Shown: one piece after another, positions 5,997 to 40,692 of the stretch | How positions within the stretch are numbered: position 1 is the first letter of the stretch | How the letters are laid out: the number at the start of each line of letters is the position of its first letter | Source: a virus | Reading direction: 5' to 3' (one strand) | DNA length: 62,718 nucleotides | IMG/VR virus record: IMGVR_UViG_3300028901_000105 | Span: 1 to 62,718 of that record | Translations under genes and position numbers: made by a program | The notes under the pieces: model-generated | Databases searched by the model: none | Told to the model about the DNA's origin: nothing | The model's input: only the letters and a program-made list of their open reading frames with translations

Positions 5997-6905
5997 TTAT
6001 TGGTAACGTTCGTCTAGCTTTTCAGTGAGAGCATCCGCAGCACCCTTATTGACATGCTGCAAATAAATACTGGTCACACGAACGCTTTTGTGGCGCATCA
6101 ATCTGGAAACCTCTGTGATACGCGCTCCAGATCGCTCCGCATTCATCGCCGCTGTATGGCGCAAACTGTGAACACTAATGCCATGCCCCGGCCCAAAAAC
6201 AGCGTCACATCTTTTCTTGACCATGTACTGAATCTGATAGTATTTCATGCCAAACAATGGGGCATCATCTTCACGTTCAACTGTTTTGATGTAGTCGCGG
6301 AGCACCTTCGTGGTGTTTGTGGGCAACCTGCATTCTTCTTCGTCACCACCTTTATTGACGTAAGCAAAATACATCACACTCCCTTGATTGCGAAAACTGT
6401 CTACGGTCGCACTAGCGATAGCATCAAGTCGAACAGCCGTCGTCAAAAACAAAAGCAGTATGGTGTAATCCCGCTGCCCAATAAGAGTCTTTCGGTCAAT
6501 GGCCTTCAGCAGGTCTACATCCTGTCCATCTTCCAAGGCGGTTGCTTTGCCATAGGGGTTTACTGGAATATGGTGGACATCTTCAGCCGGATTGTCATCC
6601 CTCAGATAGCCTTTGTTTATCTTGATAAATTCATAGAACGACGAAATGGCTGACAGCTTTTGATTGACAGTCGCCGCTTTGTGCTTTTGCCCCAAAACGA
6701 TTTTCCATGCGCGTACATGGTCGCGTTCAACCGCGCCTGCATGAAGCCCGCAAAACGCATAAAACTGTTCCCACGCCCGATTGTAGGCTTCGCGGGTATG
6801 ACGTGACCTAAACTCCGAAATCCAAAGCACATAAGCCTGCTGCCATTCATCAGGAAGGGTACTATGAATTGCTGTTGTTTGATGGGGTGCTGTGATCTTA
6901 CCCAT
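5997..6905 (-). CDS. Tyrosine recombinase / integrase (XerC/D-like)
   Basis: Contains RDYTILLLFLTTAVRLD and the C-terminal HSLRHTAA...RLMRHKSVRVTSIYL (R..H-x-x-R..Y catalytic pattern). Start chosen at the internal ATG preceded by GGGAGAG; the longest ORF extends to 6968. Confidence 0.85.
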   Translation of the reverse strand: MGKITAPHQTTAIHSTLPDEWQQAYVLWISEFRSRHTREAYNRAWEQFYAFCGLHAGAVERDHVRAWKIVLGQKHKAATVNQKLSAISSFYEFIKINKGYLRDDNPAEDVHHIPVNPYGKATALEDGQDVDLLKAIDRKTLIGQRDYTILLLFLTTAVRLDAIASATVDSFRNQGSVMYFAYVNKGGDEEECRLPTNTTKVLRDYIKTVEREDDAPLFGMKYYQIQYMVKKRCDAVFGPGHGISVHSLRHTAAMNAERSGARITEVSRLMRHKSVRVTSIYLQHVNKGAADALTEKLDERYQ

Positions 6906-6997
6906 ACCCTTGCTCTCCCTAAGATTGGTTTCTACATAACAACCCATTATGTAGAATAATTTTAGCATGTGCGGTCTAGGTTTGCAAACGAACAGAC

Positions 6998-9246: not shown

Positions 9247-9800
9247 GTCGTGTTCGTTCGTTGTTCCTGCTTTATCTCGTGTTGTTCGTGCTTGTCCCGG
9301 TGGCCGCCGCACAGGATATTCCCGGCGTACCCACCACTGAAGACATTCTCGGCCCGGTCGCTGCAATCGCGGTCGCGGTCAATGCATTTGTAGAATTCGT
9401 CAAGCCGCGTGTTCGGACGACGAAATTCTCGGTTGGTGTACAAGACTCGCTGCTGCTATTGATCGCGGTGTCTGCGGGAATCGCTGCGGTGTTTATGGCT
9501 GGTGGGGCGGCGAACTTGTTTCCGAATATGCCAGTCCGCTACCAGACATTTGCGCTTATTCTTACAGGCGTAGTCGCGGCTTTCGGTGCTGAATTCCTGC
9601 ATGTGCTGGTCGATTTCTTGTACGCTGGTCGGGATTGGCTGCGACCGACGCCGGATGCATCCGAAAAGGTTTCGCGTTCGGATTTAAGCAAGGCGCTGCG
9701 GCGTAACGTCCCCGTGCCGGAAATTGGTACGGCTAAGGGGCAAATTGATGTGGATGTCTATCCTCGCTTGCACCCTTCGCCTCCTGACGAACGCAACTAA
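9243..9800 (+). CDS. Holin-like multi-pass membrane protein
   Basis: GTG start overlapping the upstream stop. Signal-like N-terminus plus about 3 hydrophobic helices. Last gene of the lysis block. Confidence 0.5.
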   Translation: MSRVRSLFLLYLVLFVLVPVAAAQDIPGVPTTEDILGPVAAIAVAVNAFVEFVKPRVRTTKFSVGVQDSLLLLIAVSAGIAAVFMAGGAANLFPNMPVRYQTFALILTGVVAAFGAEFLHVLVDFLYAGRDWLRPTPDASEKVSRSDLSKALRRNVPVPEIGTAKGQIDVDVYPRLHPSPPDERN

Positions 9801-9823
9801 CAGTCTAAAACCTGATGATTATG

Positions 9824-9850
9824 ACCGCCCTCCGGGGCGGTTTGCATTTA
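9824..9850 (+). terminator. Rho-independent terminator after the lysis block
   Basis: accgccc-tccg-gggcggt stem-loop followed by ttgcattta. Confidence 0.7.
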
Positions 9851-9870
9851 TAGAACTTCCGTGCTATATT
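9842..9870 (+). promoter_or_regulatory. Promoter, GAAC-N4-GTGC family (TTGCAT-N17-TATATT)
   Basis: TTGCATttatAGAACttccGTGCTATATT. It faces the ORF-free region 9871-10549. Confidence 0.55.
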
Positions 9871-9876
9871 TTCCTT

Positions 9877-10375
9877 GTCACGAGGCAAACCCTACTTCCT
9901 GTTTAAACAAGTAGAAAGGACTGCCTGGTAACACACGCCGCCGCCGAAATGGTATCGGTCGTTCCTCGAAGGGGAGCGCAAAGAGTCTCGGTACTCACGG
10001 CGGCACATGCGAGGGGGCGCTCGGCTTTCGCCCTTAAATCAGCAGAATGGCGCTGCTGTCCGGTAGCATCAGGGGGCAACCTCCGTTTACATGGTTGCAT
10101 TTCATTGGGGCGGTGGCGTCATTCTATCCCCGCTATACTGCTGACAATAGACGCAAACAAAACAGCAGTGGATAGCCTAACAGATGGTAAGGCGAGCCAT
10201 AGCCGAAAGGTTTTCCTTGCTTTATAGTCCGGGTGCAATTCCCGGCAAGGCTTCATACCCATATGACGGTTGGTAGGTTGGCGGGTGTGCGACACGTCGC
10301 TTTAAGCCGTAAAGCCGTCAAACAATGCCATTGCAGTTTCGTATCGGTGACTGTCCTACCGCAGTCACCCGCTTG
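9877..10375 (+). ncRNA. Large structured non-coding RNA of unknown class (boundaries approximate)
   Basis: Largest ORF-free stretch of the genome, with a promoter upstream. Many local helices, for example cagcag/ctgctg at 10040-10058, gcaacc/ggttgc at 10076-10098, nested ccttg..ccggg..cccgg..caagg at 10215-10250, and ggtgactg/cagtcacc at 10346-10369. Confidence 0.45.
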
Positions 10376-10450
10376 AAGGGTGTAGCTTAACCGGAAAAGC
10401 ACCCGGCTCAAGGGCGAGGCGATACTGGTTCGAATCCAGCCACCTTTCCA
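10376..10450 (+). tRNA. tRNA-like element (non-canonical anticodon arm; G3:U70)
   Basis: 7-bp acceptor aagggtg/caccttt with a G:U at pair 3:70. D arm gctt-aaccggaa-aagc. T arm ctgg-ttcgaat-ccag. Followed by cca. The anticodon stem has only 3 of 5 pairs around the loop ctcaagg. Confidence 0.45.
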
Positions 10451-10549: not shown

Positions 10550-12778
10550 TTAGCGGTAAAGCGCCTGATTGTGGTCGCTAACGTGATGCCATATCCACGT
10601 TTCGTCAACTTGCGGTTCGCACTCGCTTACTTGACTCTTCTCTGGCAAATTGGGTTCCAACGTTCGCGTCACTTTGCGCTCAACGATGCCCCGGCCATCC
10701 GGTTCGCTCATCTGCTCGGCAACCGCGACCTTGTACCCCTTCTCAACCAAGAGGTTAATGTATTGGTCAACGGCATGATGCGGGACGCCCGCCATTGGCA
10801 CACGTTCATCACGACTGATCGGACGCCCGGTAAGCACCAAATCGAGTTCACGCGCGGCGGTTTCGGCATCGTCATCGAAGGTTTCGTAAAAGTCTCCCAA
10901 GCGGTAGAAAAGGATGTGATTGGGGTACTCTTTTTTAATGTCTAGGTATTGCTGGCGCAGCGGGGTAACACGGGTAGCAGACTTGAAGGCCGAAACAGTT
11001 TTGAACGCGCCGCCGCTGGCGACTTGTACGAATTTGTCATTAGCTGCTTGAACATCTGGGTCTTCGAGTGCCAGATGAACGACTGGTGACATATTCAGCG
11101 TTTCAGCAAATGCAGCATCAGCAGCGCGGGCAGCTTCATTGACTTGTTTCACCCAAGCGTCTGTTTTAGCAAGATCATCCTCAACAGGCGGTGCGGTTGT
11201 AACCATATCCCACAAGCAAAGCATTCCATGAGGAAGGTTTTCAAACCGCACAGTCAGCGCTAATGGGCCGCGATTCTCAACTTTGCCTTTTGTGCCAGCC
11301 GGAACAATGACCTTTCCTTGCTCGTGAATATCTTCACTGGCATAAATGGTTGAACCTTTCTTAATTGTCTTTAGCGTGGCGTCGCTAGCCCGAGGGATAG
11401 GCTTGAGATTTTCAGGCGGTGGTACTGGGAAATCCAGATCAATGCCGTTCTCTGCTGCCCATGCTTCGCCAGCTTCAGTTATTTCAATCTTTGCCCAATC
11501 GTTGGTATCGGTAATAAACCCATGCTCCCGCAATGCCTTGCGGGTTGCCGCGTTCTTGACAACCGGTTCGCCTTTCGCTAGTGCCTGAAGGAATTCAACC
11601 TGTCGCACTGGTAGCATTAGACTTGGCGTATCAATCCGAATTTCAGGCAGATTATGTTTCGCTGCATGGCAGTTCCGGCAAATCACCTTGCCATACGGCA
11701 GCCCCATTAATGGCTTTGCCCAACCCGGTTGTTGAGCAGCGCGGTTCGACTCCGAATCAAGAAACACGCCGCACACATCACAACATATCCAACCAAGCCA
11801 ATCTTGACCGGGTTTAAGATCGCGCTTGGAGTCGTTCTCAACCATGTAGGGGCTTGTGCCGTCGGCTTCATTACAAGGCGGCAGCTTCATCACGCATTCC
11901 CAGCAGTACAACTCGCCATTGCTGGGATATAGGTCTACGCTAAGCTGTCCACATTGGGTGCAATAACGTGCTTCTGACTTAGGCGAAAATTCGCGGATTT
12001 TGCCAAACGGTGTCGGGCTGAAATGCAGATCGCGCTCAATGCGTAAATTGTAATGCCCACGCGACGCTCGAATTTCAGTGAGAGGGATATATCCCCATTC
12101 AGCACCATCGGGATAATCTGAATTGTAGGCATACCCAAAAGCCACGTCGCTTTTCGGATCGTACTCCACGATGTACCATGTCCATGAACTGTCAGGCGTG
12201 AACCAGCGGACATGCACAATCTTTTCCGCTGCCGGAATGCTTTCGGTTTCGTACATACCGGGGATTGCATGGCCGGGCGGAATAAGCACATAAGCGCTAT
12301 TGGAAGCAGGCCAACGATTGGCGGGGCGCAGCAGATGAGTTGGAATGACGAGTGTTGCACCTTCTACTTGTACACGCGAATGGGCTGGTAGTTCGCGCTC
12401 GATTTTCAACCATGTACCTTTCAGCACACCTGATGGGCTATCCCATTCAACAGAGTCACCGTCGGTAAATGAAATAACATCGTTTTTCTGCACTGGCGGG
12501 GGCGCAGATGCTTGGATTGCAGGCTGTGGCGGCTCAGATACCTTAATCGGCGTTTTGGGGCTTTCTGGTGCGTTTAACAGCCCTTCCATGCCGTACACAC
12601 CATCTACAATTTGCTGCACAGCATCCGGCAGCTTTTCACCCGTGTAAATCCAACAAACCTTTTTGTCGTCCCATTTACACCCGGCTTGACGCAAAGCATC
12701 TTTGTATTGGGGAACAGCCTTGATCTCCCAACTTCCTTCGACCTTTTTTGCTGTAACTGATGTTTTTGCTTTCGTCAT
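10550..12778 (-). CDS. Multidomain protein: DUF5710-like N-terminus, DUF2958-like domain, zinc ribbons, C-terminal MutS domain I (mismatch-binding domain only)
   Basis: The C-terminus QQYLDIKKEYPNHILFYRLGDFYETFDDDAETAARELDLVLTGRP..PMAGVPHHAVDQYINLLVEKGYKVAVAEQM..VERKVTRTLEP aligns with the bacterial MutS N-terminus, including GDFYE. The mid region FTPDSSWTWYIVEYD..FGYAY..EWGYIPLTEI..IERDLHFSP is DUF2958-like. CxxC pairs are also present. Confidence 0.8.
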   Translation of the reverse strand: MTKAKTSVTAKKVEGSWEIKAVPQYKDALRQAGCKWDDKKVCWIYTGEKLPDAVQQIVDGVYGMEGLLNAPESPKTPIKVSEPPQPAIQASAPPPVQKNDVISFTDGDSVEWDSPSGVLKGTWLKIERELPAHSRVQVEGATLVIPTHLLRPANRWPASNSAYVLIPPGHAIPGMYETESIPAAEKIVHVRWFTPDSSWTWYIVEYDPKSDVAFGYAYNSDYPDGAEWGYIPLTEIRASRGHYNLRIERDLHFSPTPFGKIREFSPKSEARYCTQCGQLSVDLYPSNGELYCWECVMKLPPCNEADGTSPYMVENDSKRDLKPGQDWLGWICCDVCGVFLDSESNRAAQQPGWAKPLMGLPYGKVICRNCHAAKHNLPEIRIDTPSLMLPVRQVEFLQALAKGEPVVKNAATRKALREHGFITDTNDWAKIEITEAGEAWAAENGIDLDFPVPPPENLKPIPRASDATLKTIKKGSTIYASEDIHEQGKVIVPAGTKGKVENRGPLALTVRFENLPHGMLCLWDMVTTAPPVEDDLAKTDAWVKQVNEAARAADAAFAETLNMSPVVHLALEDPDVQAANDKFVQVASGGAFKTVSAFKSATRVTPLRQQYLDIKKEYPNHILFYRLGDFYETFDDDAETAARELDLVLTGRPISRDERVPMAGVPHHAVDQYINLLVEKGYKVAVAEQMSEPDGRGIVERKVTRTLEPNLPEKSQVSECEPQVDETWIWHHVSDHNQALYR

Positions 12779-13059
12779 TATGCTACCCGTGCCATCTGCA
12801 CTAAACCTTCATGGCTGTAGTAGTAACATTCGTCATATCCAGCAGCTTCCGCTTCCGCCCGCGTCTCAAAGACATCTTCAGGGCTACCCTGATCGCAAGC
12901 ACGATAGAGTTTCCCTGTCCATTCATCGACAAAATAGTCGTCCGTGGCGTTGTCATCTGTTCCATGCAACCATTGGAAATCCTGCCAGTTCGCCATATGA
13001 CGGACATACTTGCTAATCCATTTCTGCGGATTACGAATGCGGCGCTTTTTCTTGGTCAT
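12778..13059 (-). CDS. Hypothetical protein
   Basis: 93-aa ORF, first gene after the promoter at 13098-13126. Its stop overlaps the start of the downstream gene. Confidence 0.65.
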   Translation of the reverse strand: MTKKKRRIRNPQKWISKYVRHMANWQDFQWLHGTDDNATDDYFVDEWTGKLYRACDQGSPEDVFETRAEAEAAGYDECYYYSHEGLVQMARVA

Positions 13060-13160: not shown

Positions 13161-13640
13161 TTAGCTTAAGGTCTGTGCCGTGTGAATCAGTGCAAGGGCG
13201 ATCACCATCTTACGGTTTAGGTGTTTGCCGTGTTTTAGGTATTTAGCTGCTGCTGTTTTCTCCAAAACCCCCTGTAGGGTTTTGAGTTCGCTGGCAACAT
13301 CCAACGCCCCAATCGAGCGTTCGCCCGCGTGAAGTTTTTCTTTACTGGAACTGGTTCCGGCTCGCGCGCTTAAATAGTGTTCAACATAAGATTGCCACTG
13401 TTGCGGCGAGATCGACGCAGAATCCAATGCCAGCTTCTTGATGCTAATCTCTACCAACAGCGTCAGATTTTCGCTGTAGCTAGGCAGCGGATAAGGGATA
13501 CCCGCCTCATCAGCGACATGCTGCAATTGACCACGCAACGTCTCCAATCCTCGCCCAATGGTGGTTATTTGAGGCAGGAAGGCGTCATAGAGAATGTAAA
13601 TGCTTTCGCCTTGTGGCAATCTATTTCGAACCTTATACAT
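13161..13640 (-). CDS. Hypothetical protein
   Basis: 159-aa ORF in the leftward operon. Confidence 0.65.
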   Translation of the reverse strand: MYKVRNRLPQGESIYILYDAFLPQITTIGRGLETLRGQLQHVADEAGIPYPLPSYSENLTLLVEISIKKLALDSASISPQQWQSYVEHYLSARAGTSSSKEKLHAGERSIGALDVASELKTLQGVLEKTAAAKYLKHGKHLNRKMVIALALIHTAQTLS

Positions 13641-15172: not shown

Positions 15173-16861
15173 TTACCGAAATTCAATCCGCGATTTCTCC
15201 GCCAGTTTTGCTTTCGCGGTCGTCAGGTCATCGGTCGTGAGCAGATAATCAACTTCCGCAATCAACCGACTCAACCGCAGTTGATACATCAATTCCAACA
15301 CATCATCTGGCTTGGTGTCGGACGGCTGGCTCACAATGGCCCATTGGTCAGCATCTAAACAGCTTTCTAGGTAAGCAATGGGTTCTACATCAAACTGCCC
15401 AATGGCATCCGTGAACATTTCGTAGACGTCTCCGAAGGTGGGAAAATCTTCGGCTTCAGGCGGTGGCGCTTGTACTTGACGAAAGCTGCGCCGGATACCA
15501 TCATACAATCCCGGCTGTGCGACCAGCGCCCGGATCACCGCTGTTTCAATACCCACGAGTTCTATGCGGGGGGCTTCATCTTCCGCCCATTTCTCCGGTA
15601 CATGTCCAGTCGCCATCATCAACACCTGATCAACAGGCAGCCGCAACCGGGCCGCTAAGGATTGCACATTCCACATTTTATAAATATCGCTCTCGCAGGC
15701 CATCAACGGTGGAATCAGGCGTTTAACCAGTTCGACGCGCTGCGGTAGTGAGGCATTTTCAGGCAGCGATTCGCAGCCTGTGCGGATGATGTAATCCGCA
15801 ACCGGTTCGGCACTACTCACCAAATCGCGCCACTGCTGCGGCGACTGCCTGATAATATCGTCCGGGTCGTGGTCAGCGGGCAATGTCATGACATACACAT
15901 CCCGTTCGGATTTCACCAGCGGTTCAATATTGCGGGCGGCGGCTTGCTGCCCAGCCTTATCGCCATCCAGCGCCAGCACAATCGATTTACTACCGCGCAG
16001 CAGTTTCAGGTGTGCGTTGGTGAGCGCCGTTCCCATCTGTGCCACAACATTCTTAAAGCCTGCCTGCCATGCCTGCATTGCATCCATGTAGCCTTCGACG
16101 ATCACCACCTGATCGCGGCACATTTCCCGGTCATAAGCAAACAACAGGCGCGATTTGCTGAAGATCGCCGTTTCCGGCCCATTCAGGTATTTGGGCTGCT
16201 GGTCATCAGCCATTGCACGTCCGGCCAGCGATACCACCCTGCCCCGTTCATCCCGAATAGGAATGATGAGTCGATTCCGAAACAGGTCATACACCCCTTT
16301 TTCAGAACGCCCCGCGAGGCCAGCCGCAAGGATTTCGGCTTCGGTGTAGCCCTGCTTTTTGAGATGATTCAAAAGCGTCTGATACCCGGATGGTGCATAC
16401 CCCAACTGAAAATGCTGCACGGTTGCAGGATTCAACTGCCGTTTTGTTTCGATGTAGGTTCGCACATCTGCCGCGCCGTTCCATTCGAGCAGGCAGCGAT
16501 GATAGACCTCGACAGCGGCAGCCAGCAGCCCATACAACTTTTCAGCATGGAAAGCGGCTTGTTTTTCGGCAGACGTTTGGCGTTTAACCTCAACGCCGAC
16601 CTGCTTACCCAATTCTTGAAGCGCCTCGCCAAATGACCAGTTGTTTCGCCTTTGGGCGAAAGCGATCACATCACCCCCGACCGCACACGCGCCGTAACAG
16701 TGCCACGTCTGCCGAATCGGGTCAACCATAAAACTGGGGGACTTTTCGCTGTGGAAAGGACACAAGCCTTTATAATGGCGTCCGGCTTTTTTGAGTTGAA
16801 CAAACTGCCCAACATAAGCAACAATGTCCAACCGCGCCTTGATGTCATCGACCGCGCTCAT
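15173..16861 (-). CDS. dnaG: DNA primase (DnaG-type)
   Basis: CHC2 zinc finger CPFHSEKSPSFMV..WHCYGCAVGGD. TOPRIM segment VVIVEGYMDAMQ..LALDGDKAGQ. Confidence 0.9.
   Translation of the reverse strand: MSAVDDIKARLDIVAYVGQFVQLKKAGRHYKGLCPFHSEKSPSFMVDPIRQTWHCYGACAVGGDVIAFAQRRNNWSFGEALQELGKQVGVEVKRQTSAEKQAAFHAEKLYGLLAAAVEVYHRCLLEWNGAADVRTYIETKRQLNPATVQHFQLGYAPSGYQTLLNHLKKQGYTEAEILAAGLAGRSEKGVYDLFRNRLIIPIRDERGRVVSLAGRAMADDQQPKYLNGPETAIFSKSRLLFAYDREMCRDQVVIVEGYMDAMQAWQAGFKNVVAQMGTALTNAHLKLLRGSKSIVLALDGDKAGQQAAARNIEPLVKSERDVYVMTLPADHDPDDIIRQSPQQWRDLVSSAEPVADYIIRTGCESLPENASLPQRVELVKRLIPPLMACESDIYKMWNVQSLAARLRLPVDQVLMMATGHVPEKWAEDEAPRIELVGIETAVIRALVAQPGLYDGIRRSFRQVQAPPPEAEDFPTFGDVYEMFTDAIGQFDVEPIAYLESCLDADQWAIVSQPSDTKPDDVLELMYQLRLSRLIAEVDYLLTTDDLTTAKAKLAEKSRIEFR
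16645..16660. repeat. TTCGCC-TTTG-GGCGAA palindrome copy 2
   Basis: Inside dnaG. This is the only coding copy in a different frame (FAQRR). Confidence 0.9.
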
Positions 16862-18360
16862 TTGCTATCTCCCAAGCGTCCAAATGGGATGGGCTTCTGT
16901 TGTGGCGGCGGGTCGGAATAAAACGTCTGGTAGGCAGGTTCCCAACCCAACTGCGCGATAACGTTAGCCCCTCCACGTCCTGCGCGATTTTTACGGAATA
17001 ACAGCTTGGCATCCATCGTGTCGGGGTCTTCGCTCACCATGCTTTCGTGATAGATGTAAAACAGCACATCAGCAGCAGCGCGACCTGCTGAACCATAATA
17101 CAAATCGGTTGCGCCGGGCAGCTTGCCTTTCCGGCCATCCCACTTCTGGTTCATCTGCGCAAAGGCCAGAATTGGCATATCGTAGTGTTTCTTCCAACCC
17201 TTCAACGCTTTGTAAAAGGCACTGGCCGCCTCGAAGTCGCCCCGAAAGCCAGAGATGGTGTCCGGGCCAACATAATCGACAATCACCAAATCGAACCCTG
17301 AACTGAGGTCAATCTCGGTGAGCTTACTCTGAATCTGCGTAAGTGTTGGTGCTTCAAAGATCGCCATCATGAACTGCTTGGAGGCGGTGTATTGTTTGAG
17401 GGTTGCGGTTGCTCGTTCAAACTGCTTTATATCCTCGTCCGTCCATTCACGTTTCTGATAGGCGGTGTAATCAATCTGCCCGATCACACAAATCATACGC
17501 TCTAGCAGTTCATCAAGTTCCATTTCCAGCGAAATGAACAGTACCCGTCTCCCTTGTTTTAGCTGATTTAATGCAGCGCAAATGGCAAAGGCGGTTTTAC
17601 CCCAACCGGGCGGCGCGGCACCGATGTACAGTTTCTTTTTCCGCCAACCGATAATCACCTTATCCAGACTGTGGAAACCTGTCGACAGTGCGGGCTGTTT
17701 CTTTTCTTCAAGTTCTGCCCGGATATTGTCGCTGTACTCCTCAACCGCATCATACAGGTTAAACGTATTCTGTTCGGATACAGTATGCATACGCACCGTC
17801 AAATCACGGGTCGCGGTTGGAACTGCATCCCGGATATCAACCAGCGACATCTGATTGACCCGCTTTCCGATTTCCGTAAGCTGGTCAGCCGAAAACATCA
17901 TAGAACGCCCCAACGATGCCCGAACGACATCCAGCGCATAATCTTCTAGATTCATGCCAGTACGGTTTTTGAGCATCAGCAAATACCGTTCGCCGCCAAT
18001 CAGATCAAGGAAAGATTGATTGCCGCGCGAAAGTTCTCCCAGCAGCGTGACCAGTCGGTCAAGGTCAATTTCCTGCCCAGATTGGTAACAACGTTCCATT
18101 GCCCTAAAAACAATCGCGTTTGACTTAAAGTAAAAGTCATCCCAATGCAGATCGGGAATACGTTCTAGTGCTTGTTTCCCCCTCCCCTGATCGCCCAAGC
18201 GTAGGATGCATGACAATACATCCTGCTCGGCACGTTCGTTATGCGGGAACTGGTGCGCCCCGATGACGTAGGTCTGCCCATCAATCTGGATTGGGCCGGG
18301 TTTGCTGGTTTCGTTAATCCAAACAGGCTTGCGAGCGCCAGTGCGTGCGAGTGCGTTCAT
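16858..18360 (-). CDS. dnaB: Replicative DNA helicase (DnaB-type)
   Basis: N-terminal ERAEQDVLSCIL. Walker A GAAPPGWGKTAF. Walker B-like LVIVDYV. 500 aa. Confidence 0.9.
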   Translation of the reverse strand: MNALARTGARKPVWINETSKPGPIQIDGQTYVIGAHQFPHNERAEQDVLSCILRLGDQGRGKQALERIPDLHWDDFYFKSNAIVFRAMERCYQSGQEIDLDRLVTLLGELSRGNQSFLDLIGGERYLLMLKNRTGMNLEDYALDVVRASLGRSMMFSADQLTEIGKRVNQMSLVDIRDAVPTATRDLTVRMHTVSEQNTFNLYDAVEEYSDNIRAELEEKKQPALSTGFHSLDKVIIGWRKKKLYIGAAPPGWGKTAFAICAALNQLKQGRRVLFISLEMELDELLERMICVIGQIDYTAYQKREWTDEDIKQFERATATLKQYTASKQFMMAIFEAPTLTQIQSKLTEIDLSSGFDLVIVDYVGPDTISGFRGDFEAASAFYKALKGWKKHYDMPILAFAQMNQKWDGRKGKLPGATDLYYGSAGRAAADVLFYIYHESMVSEDPDTMDAKLLFRKNRAGRGGANVIAQLGWEPAYQTFYSDPPPQQKPIPFGRLGDSK

Positions 18361-18368
18361 GATGCCCC

Positions 18369-19409
18369 CTAATCCAATGTTGCGATGATGTCAGCGATGA
18401 GGCTGGATGTTTTGTCAACATCAACCGGGATGCGTTTTGGGGCAGGTTCGGCAGCCTTTATCCCAAAAACCTTTTCTTTCTCTTTCTCAAGCCGCCGCTG
18501 GGCGCGGGCTTCCAACTTCCCATCGTAGGTGGGCCGGAAGATGGTTTCTTTTTCCGCAATCGTGGCAGGTTTTTGCAACATGGAAATATCATCAAACTGA
18601 TCCGTCCACCAAAGTTTCATGCCAATGATTTCCAGCGCCGTGAACGGTTCTTCCTTGAACTGAAATTCCTTGAAGGCGTCATTGGGTTTATCTTGCCCAA
18701 TCTTGCCTCGAAAGAAGTTGCCCATCTTGCGGACGTGTGACCAACCCTTGTTGTTGTTCAGCGTGGGGTGTTTGATTCCGAAGAAGTAACAGACCGCCAA
18801 GTCATAGGCTTGCTGTTCGGTTATTTCTTCTGTGGCTGATTCTTCAAACAGTTCGGTTTCGATGAATGGCTTGAATGCGGTTGGCGTTTCCTCCGTGCCG
18901 ATAGGCGCGGGTGAATATTCTTGTTTTTCTATACGTTCTTCTAAAGCGTTATTCGTTGGTGCCTGATTGGGTACAGGGGGTGTACCTGATTGGGTACAGG
19001 TTTCGTCGGAAAGGTGTACCTGATTGGGTATAGGGTGTGCCTGATTGGGTACACCTTTTTGATAACGCTGAACGTTTTCAGCCCATCGGTCGCGCACAAC
19101 AATAACGGTGGGAATTCCTTGTTTTTGTTCTTCCGCCGTTGGGCTGATAACCCGGATGTAACCCATGTTTTCAAGCTCGGTTCGGGTTTTACGAATCGTA
19201 TCCTTACCCATGCGAGTCACGCGGGCGGTTTCCCGTATACCTTCTTCGCATTGTCCGCCTTGCCCCGCCCATCTGACATAATGCCCTAAAAGGCGGTACT
19301 GGCTGGGGTTCAACTCATCGTCCGCCATGTTCAGCATCATATGGAAGTAGGTTTTTTCGCTGCGTTCTGCGACGATGCTTTGTTTTTCGTCGCCCCTTTT
19401 TTTATCCAT
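18369..19409 (-). CDS. Replication initiator / replisome organizer-like winged-helix protein
   Basis: N-terminal wHTH-like segment (TARVTRMGKDTIRKTRTELENMGYIRV). Sits upstream of dnaB-dnaG and contains four iterons in its coding sequence. Confidence 0.55.
   Translation of the reverse strand: MDKKRGDEKQSIVAERSEKTYFHMMLNMADDELNPSQYRLLGHYVRWAGQGGQCEEGIRETARVTRMGKDTIRKTRTELENMGYIRVISPTAEEQKQGIPTVIVVRDRWAENVQRYQKGVPNQAHPIPNQVHLSDETCTQSGTPPVPNQAPTNNALEERIEKQEYSPAPIGTEETPTAFKPFIETELFEESATEEITEQQAYDLAVCYFFGIKHPTLNNNKGWSHVRKMGNFFRGKIGQDKPNDAFKEFQFKEEPFTALEIIGMKLWWTDQFDDISMLQKPATIAEKETIFRPTYDGKLEARAQRRLEKEKEKVFGIKAAEPAPKRIPVDVDKTSSLIADIIATLD
18962..19052. repeat. Four direct 13-bp iterons CCTGATTGGGTAC (candidate origin)
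   Basis: Copies at 18962, 18985, 19019 (last base T) and 19040, flanked by the AT-richer stretch 18920-18960. They encode the PNQ repeats of the initiator. Confidence 0.7.
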
Positions 19410-20468: not shown

Positions 20469-21980
20469 TTAAGCGAAAAAGGCGTTCAGGTCAGATTCTT
20501 CAACGGGTGGTTCTTCGGCGAAATCGACATCTTCCTCTGGCGGAAGTGGACTGACGAGAGTCGCATTCAGATAGCCCTGCTTGGCTTCGTACTGCACACA
20601 AACTTCACCAATCTCGTACTCGTTTCCCGGCTGCCACTGGTCGATGCCCCATTCGGTGTAAAACTCATCACCCACCCACGCTTTGAAGGTGGTTGAGCGC
20701 CCGTAAGCACGAACAGGCTGTGGTGTGAGCAGTTCGATGTAGGTCTGTTTCTGCTTTTTGCCGCGCACGGTTGTTTCGGATTCAACATATTTGGCGCGAA
20801 CGGCATACATGGGAACACGCTGTAAGACACAGGTGTTGACGTGGGCGTTCCACGCGGCGGCGGGATTGGGGAATTTCTGCTTGTAGTCTGCACCCAATGA
20901 CTTCTCAATATCCTGCCCTACCTGCCGCAAGCCGTACCAAAGGTTGTCGATCAATTGCAGTGCGTTATCTTCTGTCCAGCCCTCACCTGCTGGTTTGGTT
21001 TTTGTGGATGCTGGCTTGTTGATTTCCGCCGCAATCTGCCGCAAGCGGGCGACAAGCTGTTCTTCATTCAGCGTGGTATCGCCCAGCTTGGTAATCGGGT
21101 TCTGTGGCTGAATCTTGGGCATCCAAAGATCCATGTTATCCCCAACCAACCCCAAGTCTTTGAGCAGATAGGCAATCTTATTTTTGGCGATCTGATCTTC
21201 CAACCAATGCGGCGCGGGTTTCTCATCGGGCGGCGGTGGGCTTGCAGGCTTTTTATCCGGTGCAGGTGGTTGTTGGGCTTTGGGGGTAGCGGGCTGTGGC
21301 GGCGGGGCAATAATGGTCATACGCCCAGACTCATCGACATTAACATCCGCGCCAAGTTCTTCTTGGGTGTATAACCCTAAGATTTTGTCGGAGAATGTTA
21401 CCCGTAAATTAGCCGCCAGCGCCCGCCACTGAAACATGACTTTGGGCTGAATCTTGTAATTGCGGCTTTCCATGAGCGAGATGTTGACTTGCTGGCCGTT
21501 TCGCCATTCAGTGGTTTGGTAGCGGGTCGCTTCTTCAACACCAAAGCGGGTTGTATGGGGGGATTTACCCTTACGCTTCACGGTGACGATGCAGCGTTCA
21601 TCGTTGGCATCGAATTGAATGTCTTCCAATTCGTTGCTGTTGTAACACAGGGCTAACATCCCTTGTGGGTCGAGTGCGGGTTTGCCCTTAATCAGATCAA
21701 TTGACTTGAGCGCAGCCATCTCGGTTAGCCCAAGCGACAAGCCCTCAAGGAAGATCATCATAATATCGCCTTCGGTCAGCGGATTGCTGCCATTTTTGAC
21801 AAAGGCAAGCTGACTCTTGGCGATGTACTTGGCGAGGGTTTGCAGACGCCCGAATTGTTCTTCCGTCATGTGCAAAATCGAACGCGGAAGCGGGGCAAGA
21901 ACCCCTTGTGGTGCGTAAACCGCCAAGTCTGAGGGAGCGTTTAGCAGCGCAATTGAATTCGCTGTTGTTTCTTCAGACAT
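20469..21980 (-). CDS. RecT/Redbeta-superfamily single-strand annealing protein with long C-terminal extension
   Basis: GLSLGLTEMAALKSIDLIKGKPALDPQGMLAL...FDANDERCIVTVKRKGKSPHTTRFGVEEA resembles the Bet/RecT core. A Pro-rich linker is followed by about 200 extra residues. Confidence 0.6.
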   Translation of the reverse strand: MSEETTANSIALLNAPSDLAVYAPQGVLAPLPRSILHMTEEQFGRLQTLAKYIAKSQLAFVKNGSNPLTEGDIMMIFLEGLSLGLTEMAALKSIDLIKGKPALDPQGMLALCYNSNELEDIQFDANDERCIVTVKRKGKSPHTTRFGVEEATRYQTTEWRNGQQVNISLMESRNYKIQPKVMFQWRALAANLRVTFSDKILGLYTQEELGADVNVDESGRMTIIAPPPQPATPKAQQPPAPDKKPASPPPPDEKPAPHWLEDQIAKNKIAYLLKDLGLVGDNMDLWMPKIQPQNPITKLGDTTLNEEQLVARLRQIAAEINKPASTKTKPAGEGWTEDNALQLIDNLWYGLRQVGQDIEKSLGADYKQKFPNPAAAWNAHVNTCVLQRVPMYAVRAKYVESETTVRGKKQKQTYIELLTPQPVRAYGRSTTFKAWVGDEFYTEWGIDQWQPGNEYEIGEVCVQYEAKQGYLNATLVSPLPPEEDVDFAEEPPVEESDLNAFFA

Positions 21981-29904: not shown

Positions 29905-31323
29905 ATGAATCTAGACCTCGAAAACAAACTTTCCATCACGGTAGACGATCTTGTGAGCCAACGTATTGCTGTGCTGGGTGCGTCGGGTATGGGCAAAAGC
30001 AACACGGTTGCGCTGCTTTTGGAAAACCTGATTCCGCAGTGGCCGTTTGTGATCTTCGATATTCACGACGAATATTGGGGACTGCTTGAACAGTTCCCGA
30101 TGCTGCGGGTCGGTAAACCCTGTCCATATGGGGACGATAAATCACCCGCCATCCAGCTTGAAGCTGGCCCGGATGAAGCGGCCAAGATCGCAGACCTGTC
30201 TTACGACAAACGGCTTTCGGTGCAGGTCAATATGCTGTATATGAACCCGGACGAACGGTTGGAATTTGTGCATAACTATTGCGCCCGAATTTGGCAGCGT
30301 AATATGGTGGCGCGAACTCCGTATGGGGTGGTGCTGGAAGAAGCCCAAAACTTTATTCCGCAGCTTGGCAACAGCGAAGCACTGTTGCTGATGAAACGCT
30401 TTGCGCTGGAAGGGCGCAAGTTTGGATTCACCGTCGTGATTTCGTCGCAGCGTTCCAGCGAAATCCACAAAACGGTTCTCGGCATGTGCGGGGTGGCGTT
30501 TCTGCATGGGGTTGATATTTACAATGATGTGCAAGCCTATCAGGGGATGCTGCCGTGGACGTTTAGCGAAACCAAAAAGATAGCCTTGTCGCTTTCCGTA
30601 GGGCAGGCGATTGTCAAATGGAAACGCAAGGGGGTTAAGTTCTATGAAACCGCAAGTATTTGCCCACGCCAGACGCTGCATGTGGGTGACACGCCGGGGC
30701 TTGAAACCCGCGAGGCGGTATCGCTGAAACCGATTGACCCTGATCTCATTGACGAACTTCGCCAGCAGCTTCAGGCGGTTGCGGCAGATGAGACGGTTGA
30801 TGAAACCACGCGCGAGATTCAACGGCTAAAAGACCTTGTAGCCAAGCTGGAAGGCGAGAAACAGGCATTGGCTAAAGAACTCGCTGTGCGTCCAGTTGCC
30901 GTCCAGCAGACGTTTTTAAATGACGAAGAACAGGTCGAAATGGTGCGGGTGGAGGAACGTACCACCACCACCTATCGGTCGAGCAGGGCTGTCAATCTGG
31001 CGGTCAAACGCCAAGAAGCGGTTTTTGCCAATTACCTGACACAGTTACGGGGACTGAGTAAATCCCAACACCGGGTCTTGGCCTATTTCATGGAAGATGA
31101 AAGCCGGATTGTCGGGGCAGAAGTGATTGCCCGTGCGTGGGATTATCAGGTGGGAACCGTCCAGAACGTATTCACCAAGCTGGTGAATATGGGATGGCTG
31201 ATGCGGGTAGGGGGTGGCAAATACAAATGCCAAGTGACCTATCGCATAAAAGAAGAATTTGCCGATCTCGTCCCGGAGGACTTGATTCAGCAAATTCTGG
31301 ATGTGCTTGATGGACGCCCCTAG
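29905..31323 (+). CDS. HerA/FtsK-superfamily (DUF87-like) ATPase with coiled coil and C-terminal winged helix
   Basis: Walker A GASGMGKSNT, then DIHDEYW, then Walker B VVLEEAQNFIPQ. The C-terminal SQHRVLAYFMEDE...VQNVFTKLVNMGWLMRV is wHTH-like. Confidence 0.6.
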   Translation: MNLDLENKLSITVDDLVSQRIAVLGASGMGKSNTVALLLENLIPQWPFVIFDIHDEYWGLLEQFPMLRVGKPCPYGDDKSPAIQLEAGPDEAAKIADLSYDKRLSVQVNMLYMNPDERLEFVHNYCARIWQRNMVARTPYGVVLEEAQNFIPQLGNSEALLLMKRFALEGRKFGFTVVISSQRSSEIHKTVLGMCGVAFLHGVDIYNDVQAYQGMLPWTFSETKKIALSLSVGQAIVKWKRKGVKFYETASICPRQTLHVGDTPGLETREAVSLKPIDPDLIDELRQQLQAVAADETVDETTREIQRLKDLVAKLEGEKQALAKELAVRPVAVQQTFLNDEEQVEMVRVEERTTTTYRSSRAVNLAVKRQEAVFANYLTQLRGLSKSQHRVLAYFMEDESRIVGAEVIARAWDYQVGTVQNVFTKLVNMGWLMRVGGGKYKCQVTYRIKEEFADLVPEDLIQQILDVLDGRP

Positions 31324-32041: not shown

Positions 32042-32238
32042 TGACGCACCCCCAAACGGCGATACACGCGCAGGTAACGGCGGCAGTAGCGCAGGCGTTC
32101 GGCCTCGGCTGTCTGGCGCAGACCGTCCTCGAAATCCTGTAGGGCAAGCTGCGTAAATGCCCCCTCGTATTGGATGATGCACTGCCGCACATTGGCGACA
32201 AGTGCATCCAGTGTCCGGCGCTCTTTACGGGTTAGCAT
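32038..32238 (-). CDS. Hypothetical small protein
   Basis: 66-aa ORF, translationally coupled on both sides. Confidence 0.55.
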   Translation of the reverse strand: MLTRKERRTLDALVANVRQCIIQYEGAFTQLALQDFEDGLRQTAEAERLRYCRRYLRVYRRLGVRQ

Positions 32239-34291
32239 GGGCTGTCTCCCGTTCGGCTTTGGCTGCTTGCAGCAGCGCGATCAGGGTATCTATTTCGTTC
32301 GGCTGAAGCTGTTCGATCAGGGCTTGCAGTCGTTGTGCGGGCGGTGTGTTTGGCACGGGCCGAATGACCACAGGCTTTAGAGGTTGGGCTGGACTGGAGT
32401 CATCCTCAAACAAGGGGGTATTTCGCAGCGCATTGAGCGCGTCATCCTCTACGGGCTTAATGGTTTCCAGCGCTTCATCCAATAGCGCCGGGTCGTTGCC
32501 ATTCGCCACTGCCAGTTTCACCGCTTCATTGCGCGGCATAGTGTAGACAACCGGAGGGGGTAGGGCGGGTGTTTCGCCCATGGGCGAAATTACCTCGAAT
32601 GTCCCTTCAATCACATCATCTTTAGGCGCAGGCAACGATTCGGTAGGCCACACCTGATCGTCAAAGTTCAACTGGACATAAGGCGGCTGGTGATTGTCGC
32701 GCAGGAAGCGGTCATTGGTGAGATACACAACGGTGGATTTGGCGCGGGTGCGGGCAACATAATCGAGATTGGTTTCCTGCTGTGAGGCTTCGGCGGTCAG
32801 TCCCGGAAACATGAGGGGCAGCTTTTCAGGCTTCAGGATGAATACCCGGTCGGCTTCTAAGCCCTTCGATTTGTGGATGGTGGATAAGATAACCTTACCA
32901 TCGGTGTTGCCATCCGAAAACAGCTTTTCAATCTCATAAATCAGTTCGTCAACAGTGGTGGCCTTGCTGCGTTCCATAATGACGCGCAAGCCTGCAACCC
33001 TGTCCTTGACGCCTTCCGCGCCTGCTTCGTCACCTTTTTTCATGAAGCGTTCAACTTCTGCTTCTTCGTAGGCAGCGAGGACATCAAGGCGTTTGTCCCA
33101 ATTCCAGTCATCCCGTTTCTGCAACTTTTCGAGCAGAGCAGTGAGGGATTTCCCGATTTCGCTGCCTAAGATGGTTGCTGGAACACCTGCTGCAAGGAAT
33201 TCGAGGATGCCCGCGACCAGTGGGGCGCGAACACGGCAGAGGATCATGTCACCGGGTTTGGCAACCTCGACCATACGCTCCTCATCAATCCACACGATTT
33301 TCCCGCGCGGCTTGTCGGGCAGGCATTGGAAGGGAGGTACAAGGCGGGCAGCATGTTCGGTGACAATCCGGGCGCAGCGGCGGGTCACAGTGAGGGGCAT
33401 CACGGTACAGTTGAATTGTTCCCGCGATAGGTCGAACGAGTCCGAATCGGCACCAGCGAAGGCATAAATCGCCTGAAATTTGTCGCCTACGAGGAAAATG
33501 CGGCCCGTGCGCCAGAGGGCTTTTGCGATCAATGCCCGCTGCATAGGGGATAGGTCTTGGGACTCGTCAACTAACACATAATTAAACTGATACATCTTGG
33601 CGTCCCACCGCACGACCCAATAGATCATATCGGTGAAGTCGATCAGCAGATTCCGGGTCTGGTTTTCCGCGACGGACATGAAGGTGGGAACGGCCTCAAC
33701 GACAACCGTGATGATACGTTCGTCGTTAAAAATGTCATCATCCATGCGATACATCTGCACCAGATCACCTAATGCGCTGAAATCGTCCCATTCGACCAGC
33801 TTGTAGCGGGTGAAGGCACACAGATCAATCGCCATTTTGATGGTGTCCTTGAGCAGGTCTTTGCGAAGCTGCTCAACGCGCTTGGCGCGGTTTTCTTGGT
33901 CACCATCTTCGCCTACTTCTTCAGCGACCGCATTAATGGCTTCCATCAGGTGGGTATTGTCCTCTGCCCATGCCTGAATGATGGCGCGGTACTTGTTGCC
34001 ATCCAGCGTCAGGTCTTTGACACCCAAGTGTTTTTTGAGGGCACTGAACCCGATGCTGTGGAAGGTCTGGGTGCGGACGCCAGTCCCGGCCAGCCGCCGT
34101 TCCAGTTCCGAAACGATGTCTTTGTTAAACGCGCAGAACAATTTTGAACCCTGTGCGGGCAACTGTTTAGCGATTTCAACCAGCGTGGTTGTTTTACCTG
34201 TGCCAGCGAGGGCAGCAATCAATAGATTGTCATGGGTGGTACGAACGGCTTCCAGAATGGCAGCCTGTTCAACCGATGGTTGGAATGCCAT
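32225..34291 (-). CDS. UvrD/Rep/PcrA-like superfamily 1 DNA helicase
   Basis: AGTGKTTTLVEIA (motif I), VLVDESQDLSP (II), GDKFQAIYAFAGAD (III), TIHKSKGLEADRVFI (V/VI region). 688 aa. Confidence 0.85.
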   Translation of the reverse strand: MAFQPSVEQAAILEAVRTTHDNLLIAALAGTGKTTTLVEIAKQLPAQGSKLFCAFNKDIVSELERRLAGTGVRTQTFHSIGFSALKKHLGVKDLTLDGNKYRAIIQAWAEDNTHLMEAINAVAEEVGEDGDQENRAKRVEQLRKDLLKDTIKMAIDLCAFTRYKLVEWDDFSALGDLVQMYRMDDDIFNDERIITVVVEAVPTFMSVAENQTRNLLIDFTDMIYWVVRWDAKMYQFNYVLVDESQDLSPMQRALIAKALWRTGRIFLVGDKFQAIYAFAGADSDSFDLSREQFNCTVMPLTVTRRCARIVTEHAARLVPPFQCLPDKPRGKIVWIDEERMVEVAKPGDMILCRVRAPLVAGILEFLAAGVPATILGSEIGKSLTALLEKLQKRDDWNWDKRLDVLAAYEEAEVERFMKKGDEAGAEGVKDRVAGLRVIMERSKATTVDELIYEIEKLFSDGNTDGKVILSTIHKSKGLEADRVFILKPEKLPLMFPGLTAEASQQETNLDYVARTRAKSTVVYLTNDRFLRDNHQPPYVQLNFDDQVWPTESLPAPKDDVIEGTFEVISPMGETPALPPPVVYTMPRNEAVKLAVANGNDPALLDEALETIKPVEDDALNALRNTPLFEDDSSPAQPLKPVVIRPVPNTPPAQRLQALIEQLQPNEIDTLIALLQAAKAERETAHANP
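32573..32588. repeat. TTCGCC-CATG-GGCGAA palindrome copy 4
   Basis: Part of the 18-bp perfect palindrome tttcgcccatgggcgaaa. Reads SPMGE in the helicase. Confidence 0.9.
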
Positions 34292-35185: not shown

Positions 35186-35917
35186 CTAGGCGGCATTGCG
35201 TGTCCATTCAAAATAGGCTTCAATATCGGCTAATTTTTCAGCAGCCGCTTGTTCGCCAAGATAGCTTATAAGCCATTTAATGGGGTCTTTATTGCCTTTG
35301 GAGTGATTGCAACTCGTTTCACCCAAAACTACCTTGATGGAATGACACAGCGGTAAAACGTTCCAAGCCACATGACCGGGGTTATCGGGGCGCGAATCAC
35401 TGATTGGTATCCAGTGATCTATTGCTATTGTGCGCGATTCGCTTGCTGAACAGCCACAAATTGCACATTTGTTACCCCAATAGGTGTGCATATTTGTTAT
35501 CTGCAATGAGGTGAGGCCTGTTGGTAAACTTTTAAGTTTTGCCCGCCTCGCCCCTTGTGCAGCGCCGCGAATGAATTTGATTTTTCGGGGATTTTTTGCG
35601 TTATATTGTTGTTGCGTTTTCCGGTTTCGAATCTTATTGTCGTCAAGCCATTGTTTAATAGCGGCCTTAAAGCGCTCAGAGTTGTTCGCCCGCCACTCTT
35701 TTAGGTACTGGCGAAATTCTTCTGGATGGTTATTGCGCCATTTCCGGCTGTATTGACGTTGTTTTTCAGGGTTATGCCAATAATGTTGTCTAGAGCGTGA
35801 CTTGGCGCATGTTTTGCAGGTGTAGGTAAATCCATCCCGACTGGTTTTATCCCGGTGAAAAAATGCAGGCGTGAGTGGGAATACTTCCCCGCATTTTGAA
35901 CACTGCTTTGTGGTCAT
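35186..35917 (-). CDS. HNH endonuclease, paralog 1 (zinc-finger N-terminus, basic repeat region)
   Basis: CSKCGEVFPLTPAFF..YTCKTCA, then AIDHWIPIS..NVLPLCHS..CNHSKG (H-N-H). Paralogous to 38838..39635 and 40693..41439. Confidence 0.7.
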   Translation of the reverse strand: MTTKQCSKCGEVFPLTPAFFHRDKTSRDGFTYTCKTCAKSRSRQHYWHNPEKQRQYSRKWRNNHPEEFRQYLKEWRANNSERFKAAIKQWLDDNKIRNRKTQQQYNAKNPRKIKFIRGAAQGARRAKLKSLPTGLTSLQITNMHTYWGNKCAICGCSASESRTIAIDHWIPISDSRPDNPGHVAWNVLPLCHSIKVVLGETSCNHSKGNKDPIKWLISYLGEQAAAEKLADIEAYFEWTRNAA

Positions 35918-38347: not shown

Positions 38348-38420
38348 CCACTCGTCGGCTAGTCGTCTAGGCCGCCTCCTTCTCAGGGAGGAAACGCAGG
38401 TGCAAATCCTGCCGAGTGGT
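38348..38420 (+). tRNA. tRNA-like gene, anticodon CUC (Glu) by position; atypical D and T loops
   Basis: Acceptor ccactcg/cgagtgg (7 bp). D stem ggct/ggcc. Anticodon stem cctcc/ggagg with loop ttCTCag. T stem gcagg/cctgc with loop tgcaaat. Followed by cttttcgttt. The D loop lacks GG and T-loop position 55 is G. Confidence 0.55.
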
Positions 38421-38438
38421 CTTTTCGTTTATGGGGAG

Positions 38439-40598: not shown

Positions 40599-40692
40599 GA
40601 TAGGCATAGGCAGTCTAGGGTAGCTCCCAAAAAGCGGTAAACCTCACCGTCTGGCTGTCTAAACATCAAGAGGTGTAGCATAGAGGTGTGCT

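Follow-up and report, generated by a model that had tools for sequence, protein, structure and literature searches.

Domain I of the bacterial mismatch-repair protein MutS has been described outside MutS in the polyvalent proteins of phages and conjugative elements, where it is called MutS-I (Iyer, Burroughs, Anand, de Souza and Aravind 2017, J Bacteriol; PMC5512222); these proteins were stated to be its sole occurrence outside MutS. The described cases come from elements of Bacteroidetes and Firmicutes, and about 80% of them also contain ArdC-N (PMC5512222). In phages, polyvalent proteins are encoded near late or virion genes; fusion to MuF is common among them, and packaging followed by injection is presumed (PMC5512222). 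A second kind of relative is represented by the small MutS-like (MSL) accessory proteins of diversity-generating retroelements (DGRs), described by Wu et al. (2018, NAR; PMC5758913). Here we analyze a 742-residue protein that ends in MutS domain I (MutS_I in Pfam). It is encoded at 10550..12778 on the minus strand of IMG/VR record IMGVR_UViG_3300028901_000105, the whole of which was studied (62,718 nucleotides (nt); hereafter the window). The open reading frame (ORF) starts with ATG and is present exactly as given in a preliminary description of this DNA. We favor, with a probability of roughly 0.4 for the explanation as a whole, the view that the product is a modular, polyvalent-type phage protein in which a captured MutS_I would act as a DNA binder devoid of an ATPase.

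The identity and anatomy of the protein, that is, a modular phage protein with an intact MutS domain I in its C-terminal part, are in our estimate close to certain. Residues 605–707 match Pfam PF01624 (MutS_I) with a score of 121.7 bits (E=2.3e-35), which exceeds the cut-off of 20.6, and the match spans positions 1–104 of the 113 in the model. In a phmmer search of the PDB, residues 596–711 align with residues 2–118 of E. coli MutS at about 50% identity (E about 4e-28). The segment G628-D-F630-Y-E632 falls on G34-D-F36-Y-E38 of E. coli MutS, so that the Phe-x-Glu wedge of the phage protein consists of F630 (nt 10889-10891) and E632 (nt 10883-10885). The AlphaFold2 model has a predicted local distance difference test score (pLDDT) of 85–98 across residues 601–710, and Foldseek superposes it on 1e3m_A and 3k0s_A with a root-mean-square deviation of 1.2 Å over 106 columns (E about 1e-10 to 1e-11). 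The preliminary description had proposed this domain from the motifs TPLRQQYL, ILFYRLGDFYE, PMAGVPHHAV and VERKVTR, all of which are present, and both the alignment of the wedge and the superposition on E. coli MutS domain I bear the proposal out. It had, however, placed the domain at 10600-10945; the actual position is 10646..10993 (minus strand, residues 596–711, with the Phe630-Tyr-Glu632 wedge at nt 10883-10891), followed on the 3' side by a non-MutS tail of 31 residues that, with the stop codon, occupies 10550..10645.

The remainder of MutS is absent, as had also been proposed for the connector, core, clamp and ABC ATPase domains. Pfam finds no match to MutS_II through MutS_V in the window protein. 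The NCBIfam equivalog NF003810 reaches 142.9 bits where its cut-off is 480, with only model positions 2–108 of 793 matched, and TIGR01070 scores 138 bits against 641.7. Since the equivalog scores are far below cut-off and the domain I region alone is matched, the segment is domain I of MutS, not a MutS protein. Across 17 orphan copies (that is, copies of MutS_I outside MutS), an alignment shows that essentially all residues invariant in cellular MutS_I are kept, namely, in E. coli numbering, P12, Q16, Y17, K21, G34–E38, F40, D43, A44, R58, G70, P72, H74, Q95 and R108. The sole invariant site lost in the orphan copies is G117-T118, at the junction of domains I and II. The Phe-x-Glu wedge motif is present in 16 of the 17 copies. 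Because the whole mismatch-contact signature is retained, the earlier phrase "mismatch reader without an ATPase" is fair as a structural description.

The other parts of the protein are small modules, all encoded on the minus strand. Residues 1–67 (12578..12778) form an N-terminal module, termed here the N-module, which is divergent and DUF5710-like. Residues 189–256 (12011..12214) match DUF2958 (PF11171, E=7.6e-8), and their 33.1 bits exceed the gathering threshold of 21, so that the "DUF2958-like" label of the preliminary description stands. The same domain is found in several protein clusters retrieved in our searches (P numbers below), namely P0002, P0006–P0008 and P0145. Two CxxC...CxxC zinc ribbons had been reported, and their cysteines are present. 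The first ribbon, C273xxC276...C292xxC295 (11879..11971), is a window-specific insert missing from P0002–P0005 in the alignment. The second, C333xxC336...C367xxC370 with H371, lies in a conserved module of residues 304–375 (11654..11869), and the columns C333, C336, C367, C370 and H371 are invariant across five family members. Residues 388–446 (11441..11617) form a small helical module with a pLDDT of 93–96, conserved in P0002–P0004 and P0136. No enzymatic domain was detected in the window protein by Pfam and PADLOC scans. PADLOC gave no match for the protein or its three upstream neighbors, the zinc-ribbon/helical region and DUF2958 had no sequence match in the PDB, and a literature search turned up nothing on the function of DUF5710 or DUF2958.

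The protein belongs to a family in which the fusion recurs. An exhaustive HMMER search of 1.84 billion representative proteins with a 69-column profile of the N-module matched 106 representative clusters; a word-index search with the same profile gave zero matches. At least 16 protein clusters of 213–1055 amino acids combine the N-module with MutS_I (local hmmsearch), and GDF[YF]E is present in all 16. Among 97 N-module proteins scanned with Pfam, none has MutS_II to MutS_V, and ArdC-N was found neither in these nor in the window protein. The minimal members P0015, P0130 and P0137 are only 213–231 amino acids long; P0015 (230 amino acids) and P0130 (231 amino acids) consist of the N-module, a linker and MutS_I, and nothing else. 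The constant unit of the family is the DUF5710-like N-module plus MutS_I, with the other modules shuffled. The modules that are swapped include DUF2958, zinc ribbons and DNA methyltransferases. P0002 (862 amino acids) matches 99% of the window protein, with 51% of the residues identical, and shares its content of DUF2958 and MutS_I; at the nucleotide level the two genes are 87–94% identical in the N-module, DUF2958 and MutS_I and 65% identical in the zinc-ribbon/helical core. P0003 (605 amino acids) likewise carries MutS_I. In P0004 MutS_I is missing, in P0005 a DNA-methyltransferase-like module replaces it, and in P0167 a methyltransferase and MutS_I occur together. In P0142, residues 613–648 are a degenerate MutS_I remnant beside a methyltransferase, with GDFYETF changed to GAMWTTW; the Phe-x-Glu wedge has decayed in this lineage, which has an enzymatic module.

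The relationship of the N-module to DUF5710, claimed in the preliminary description, holds transitively, because the N-module profile retrieves proteins that Pfam itself calls DUF5710. The profile finds P0143, a RepB primase followed by seven repeats, with E=1.9e-11, and Pfam calls these repeats DUF5710 with E=2e-15; Pfam also detects DUF5710 in 25 of the 97 scanned profile matches. A direct match, however, is lacking: a Pfam scan of five N-modules, with a limit as permissive as E<=10, detected DUF5710 in none of them. The N-module is predicted to fold as beta-beta-alpha-beta-beta-alpha, with a pLDDT of 92–97 in the full-length model and 78 when modeled alone. Compared with the PDB, this fold had no significant match (best E=0.046), and weak hits to MSH2 and the N-terminal domain of XPB (probability <=0.54) were set aside as uninterpretable. 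Partners of the N-module include RepB primase, methyltransferases, LPD29 (in two proteins) and, below threshold, a DarA_C-like segment (in P0146).

In our view, the window protein most likely functions by binding mismatches or heteroduplexes without an ATPase and without the ability to signal repair, as far as can be judged from its sequence. Cellular MutS meets MutL through its connector and ATPase domains (PMC4521584), and the main beta-clamp-binding motif is C-terminal (PMC5027486). Missing from the phage protein are the parts by which MutS dimerizes, clamps DNA, undergoes ATP-driven switching, recruits MutL and makes its main contact with the beta-clamp; because the connector, ATPase, clamp and dimerization parts are missing, neither MutL recruitment nor an ATP-driven sliding clamp would be expected. 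We therefore suggest, as a tentative mechanism, that the protein shields DNA from repair. The MutS_I wedge would bind mismatches, small loops and other distorted or heteroduplex DNA, with the other modules or basic linkers assisting its binding. As no signal would pass to MutL, the protein would sit on the DNA as a silent occupant, and mismatches in phage replication or annealase intermediates would be masked from host MutS-MutL, so that both host repair and anti-recombination would be avoided. The N-module and a partner protein described below would tether the MutS_I protein to the DNA-metabolism proteins of the phage. Shielding is favored among the possible mechanisms because of the replication-operon context and the strict retention of mismatch-specific residues.

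This context is as follows. The MutS_I gene stands at the end of a minus-strand replication/recombination operon that also encodes a RecT-like annealase (20469-21980), an initiator/DnaD-like protein (18369-19409), DnaB helicase (16858-18360) and DnaG primase (15173-16861), all on the minus strand and all identified with PHROG and Pfam. The label "early protein" used in the preliminary description has this position as its only basis. The gene of P0130 likewise lies downstream of DnaB (locus L007). The RecT-like gene in the same operon is the only contextual support for the roles suggested in the preliminary description, in which annealase products would be shielded from host mismatch repair or a nuclease or helicase would be recruited.

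Directly upstream of the MutS_I gene, an ORF of about 150–160 amino acids is found at four related loci, L001 (404-895), L003 (674-1126), L007 (3700-4170) and L009 (296-748), and its homologue in the window is a gene of 159 amino acids at 13161..13640 on the minus strand. BLASTP splits these ORFs into two groups, which hhalign joins with a probability of 93.7% (E=1.9e-7, 121 columns). Invariant residues in window numbering are P23, N58, W82, Y85, Y89, G138 and A150. The gene has no Pfam, PHROG, NCBIfam or PADLOC family and no sequence match in the PDB. It probably encodes a functional partner of the MutS_I protein. Whether the MutS_I proteins and the partner of about 155 amino acids are natural phage antagonists of host mismatch repair is a further step, and one that we regard as rather doubtful on present evidence. 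If it were true, mismatches in phage replication and in heteroduplexes made by the annealase would be occupied by an ATPase-less copy of the reader of the host, which, being unable to recruit MutL, would block both repair and MutS-dependent anti-recombination; recombination of the phage between diverged sequences would rise, and possibly the phage mutation rate too.

Several observations weigh against the anti-repair view. Intact MutS needs its clamp domains and dimerization for DNA binding as well, and a lone domain I may bind weakly; a literature search found no paper on DNA binding by isolated MutS domain I. Linkage to a RecT-like gene is observed in the window only, the other loci being short contigs, and PDB searches assign no function to the N-module or the partner protein. 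Furthermore, sister proteins swap MutS_I for DNA methyltransferases or combine the two, and the N-module co-occurs with LPD29 and DarA_C; these links speak more for a role in anti-restriction, or a polyvalent one, than for a role in anti-repair.

The last of these points leads to the main competing explanation, a classical polyvalent role, which we consider possible, though on balance unlikely. By analogy with ArdC-N, MutS-I would bind single-stranded or distorted DNA generically, without mismatch repair as its target, and it would anchor the protein to the genome of the phage during entry or early replication, protecting or modifying the DNA against restriction. The presence of MutS-I in polyvalent proteins is a published precedent for such a role (PMC5512222). 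The behavior of the methyltransferase modules, which replace MutS_I in P0005, join it in P0167 and adjoin its degenerate remnant in P0142, agrees with it, as do the N6_Mtase gene that comes next after P0002, the fusion of DUF2958 to N6_Mtase/Eco57I in P0006 and P0008, the co-occurrence of the N-module with LPD29 and, below threshold, with DarA_C, and the extreme domain shuffling across the family. On the other hand, ArdC-N, present in about 80% of the described MutS-I cases, was not found here, although it should be noted that its co-occurrence is frequent, not obligatory, in the polyvalent MutS-I subset. Moreover, the gene lies in a replication operon outside the virion genes, and Pfam detects no MuF or virion domain in the window protein. 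A strictly kept Phe-x-Glu motif and a full MutS_I signature would be superfluous for generic DNA binding, and the window protein itself has no enzymatic domain.

An origin of the ORF by artefact, or as a relic, has to be weighed as well. In this explanation the ORF would result from an assembly chimera involving part of a host mutS gene, from recent capture of a fragment that has no function or, in a third form, from carriage of a 5' mutS segment for integration into the host mutS and its rebuilding; taken jointly, these forms are very improbable. The content of G+C at third codon positions (GC3) is 0.64 in the MutS_I segment and exceeds that of the whole gene (0.50), which hints at a foreign origin, and the captured segment begins at about residue 3 of cellular MutS. 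The phage also encodes an integrase, and prophages adjoin mutS in other bacteria. Against this, a Logan contig assembled independently (L092) carries the ORF in identical form, and the same fusion occurs in 16 clusters of differing source, so that an assembly chimera, which the preliminary description had named as a possible refutation, is excluded. Between the MutS_I codons of the window and P0003, the rates of synonymous and nonsynonymous divergence (dS and dN) are about 1.08 and about 0.10, respectively (dN/dS 0.10), and dN/dS between the window and P0002 is 0.20; these ratios between phage copies point to purifying selection on MutS_I in the phage lineages. Relative to the nearest sampled cellular mutS genes, nucleotide identity is only 65–74% and the proportion of synonymous differences (pS) is 0.62–0.75; synonymous sites are therefore near saturation, which rules out recent capture. 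As regards rebuilding of an integration site, this possibility was rejected: in P0002, P0140, P0146 and P0153, MutS_I lies within the protein and in frame, the DNA identity is too low (65–74%), and the integrase lies 3.6 kb away, beyond lysis and tail genes.

The nearest relatives of the domain are proteins named MutS from Anaerolinea, Anaerolineae, Chloroflexota, Phototrophicaceae and Dehalococcoidia, with up to 77–79% identity. The copies in the window, P0002 and P0003 form one clade, and this trio alone is clearly monophyletic. In a neighbor-joining tree of 105 positions that includes the more divergent orphan copies and lacks resolution, the orphans are interspersed with cellular fragments. 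Capture long ago from a Chloroflexota-type host MutS, followed by retention under selection, appears to be the best explanation of these data.

At the search sensitivity used, the phage GenBank collection contained no record covering at least 80% of the window protein, IMG/VR contained no relative of the whole protein, and the GTDB representative genomes contained no relative of its non-MutS part. With a profile of orphan MutS_I, the best 80 loci in IMG/VR were all full-length mutS or cut at contig ends. The two phage GenBank hits to MutS_I that were inspected (H1 and H6) were discarded as full-length mutS genes of 889 and 899 amino acids in host flanks of unverified records. Likewise, the short "MutS_I-only" hits P0013, P0028 and P0029 were rejected as orphans, being frameshift-fragmented full-length mutS in error-prone assemblies; at their loci, MutS_I to MutS_V follow each other consecutively, split by frameshifts. 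In the record of Ralstonia phage YO122_3 (L011, 2559-6664), an integrase directly adjoins full-length mutS, and many predicted prophage contigs (IMG/VR L012–L091) end in or adjoin full-length host mutS. The neighborhood of mutS appears to be a frequent region of prophage insertion that contaminates "phage" records with mutS.

Homology to locus L001, which encodes P0002, stops at nt 10574, 24 nt ahead of the stop codon, and blastn finds no match anywhere in the window for the sequence downstream of the L001 gene. The loss of homology at this point implies that the window protein is truncated relative to P0002 at a recombination breakpoint, and the region of nt 10574 can be read as such a breakpoint where the early and late modules meet. 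A convergent gene for tRNA-Leu(CAA) (10376..10449, plus strand; ARAGORN, and Rfam tRNA with 37.9 bits) lies 100 nt past the stop codon, at the boundary of homology loss. The roughly 100 nt past the stop codon, this tRNA gene and about 570 nt of non-coding DNA (9800-10376) have no counterpart in related loci. On the upstream side, a 93-residue ORF without a family match (12778..13059, minus strand) lies between the partner and MutS_I genes, its stop codon overlapping the ATG of the 742-residue ORF. It is window-specific and is not found at the same place in L001 or L002: in blastn alignments, L001 927-994 corresponds to window 13127-13060, and L001 from 994 onward corresponds to window 12778 downward, leaving 281 nt that are found in the window only. 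A scan for promoters and terminators around the gene found sites no more numerous than in shuffled sequence.

The window is a complete, circularly assembled phage genome of about 62.6 kb, since its two ends overlap in an exact direct repeat of 141 nt (1-141 and 62578-62718). A tyrosine integrase (5997-6968, minus strand; phrog_1, E=5e-28) indicates that the phage is temperate. Dit-like and tail-fiber-like genes identify it as a tailed phage, and a terminase (TerL) is encoded at 29905-31323. Two further genes, for an endonuclease VII/HNH-like protein (35186-35917) and an SF1-type helicase (32225-34291), bear on the possibility that MutS_I senses mismatches or branched intermediates and recruits phage enzymes such as these for phage-autonomous processing of mismatches or heteroduplexes, in which case repair or resolution would be promoted and not blocked. 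The presence of both genes in the same genome, the position of the MutS_I gene inside a DNA-metabolism operon and the conserved partner gene, which could serve as an adaptor, are compatible with such a role. However, both the nuclease and the helicase genes are more than 20 kb distant, and no nuclease or helicase linkage is conserved at other loci; we regard this explanation as improbable.

A role as a DGR accessory factor, handling mismatches of mutagenic retrohoming as small MSL proteins are presumed to do, would have its precedent in those proteins and in the MutS_I-like extensions of three DGR reverse transcriptases (PMC5758913). The only direct repeats in the genome are the terminal overlap and a coding tandem array of a 135-nt unit, with no pair resembling a template and a variable repeat, and no reverse transcriptase was found among the window ORFs scanned or in related loci. 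A DGR link was accordingly rejected for the window genome, and this role is scarcely credible.

Three other features of the genome were recorded. The tandem array (62008-62588, plus strand) consists of five copies of the 135-nt unit (45 codons) that are 61–76% identical, presumably a repeated domain of a structural protein running across the circular junction. A second tRNA gene, tRNA-Glu(CTC), is located at 38348-38421 on the plus strand. A match to the int-alpA small RNA (Rfam RF02996) at 40608-40673 on the plus strand, with 41.9 bits against a gathering score of 35.8, sits just 5' of an ORF at 40693-41439 that is itself a weak HNH_5 match.

The family raises the questions of whether MutS domain I alone can read mismatches and what the virus gains by carrying it, and the minimal members of 213–231 amino acids, together with the conserved partner gene, are experimentally tractable targets in this respect. 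If host repair were blocked, this would explain how phages with annealases recombine diverged sequences despite anti-recombination. MutS-MutL repair would then have its first natural inhibitor of viral origin, and genome engineering would gain a small repair suppressor that is easily transferred, as well as a compact recombineering tool for non-model bacteria. If, instead, the domain were a DNA anchor for anti-restriction, the polyvalent concept would reach genes of replication operons, phages of Chloroflexota and proteins with a DUF5710-like header.

How, then, does the window protein compare with known systems? Its MutS_I has the same fold, Phe-x-Glu wedge and invariant residues as E. coli MutS (MutS1, PDB 1E3M), but the protein is without the connector, core/lever, clamp and ABC ATPase domains and the C-terminal dimerization and beta-clamp parts. 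With the DUF5710 (PF18974) repeat proteins, for example P0143, the N-module shares a G-x-x-W-D...K-x-W-Y core; unlike those repeats, it is single and N-terminal, has MutS_I and not a primase as its partner, and is too divergent for the Pfam model. MSL proteins are, like the window protein, ATPase-less MutS-related modules of phage-associated elements and presumed handlers of mismatches. They are, however, tied to a reverse transcriptase and template and variable repeats and are weakly similar to MutS, whereas the MutS similarity of the window protein is very strong. A Foldseek search of BFVD also retrieved ORFs of gut phages with the MutS_I fold and no ATPase (A0A8S5PPT8, A0A8S5PL02 and A0A8S5L9N2; 74–153 amino acids); these are only 18–24% identical, consist of a single domain or a fragment, and have no DUF5710-like N-module.

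The closest likeness is to the polyvalent MutS-I proteins. In both cases a domain I derived from cellular MutS is part of a shuffled multidomain protein of a mobile element, the window protein combines at least two unrelated domains encoded by a phage, as polyvalent proteins do, and in both cases function is a prediction. At the level of the family, the polyvalent vocabulary of DNA methyltransferases, LPD29 and a DarA_C-like segment is shared, and the window protein itself shares MutS-I only. The differences are the constant DUF5710-like N-module, the absence of ArdC-N from our Pfam scans, the Chloroflexota-like donor and the location of the gene in a replication/recombination operon and not among genes for virions or conjugation, with an upstream partner of about 155 amino acids that is conserved in the family. 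The preliminary description knew of no characterized protein with this architecture, and this is literally true, because none of the described relatives has been characterized experimentally; MutS-I outside MutS had nevertheless been described in 2017, and MSL proteins in 2018. What is new here is the partner domains, the genomic context and the lineage of a kind of fusion that was already described.

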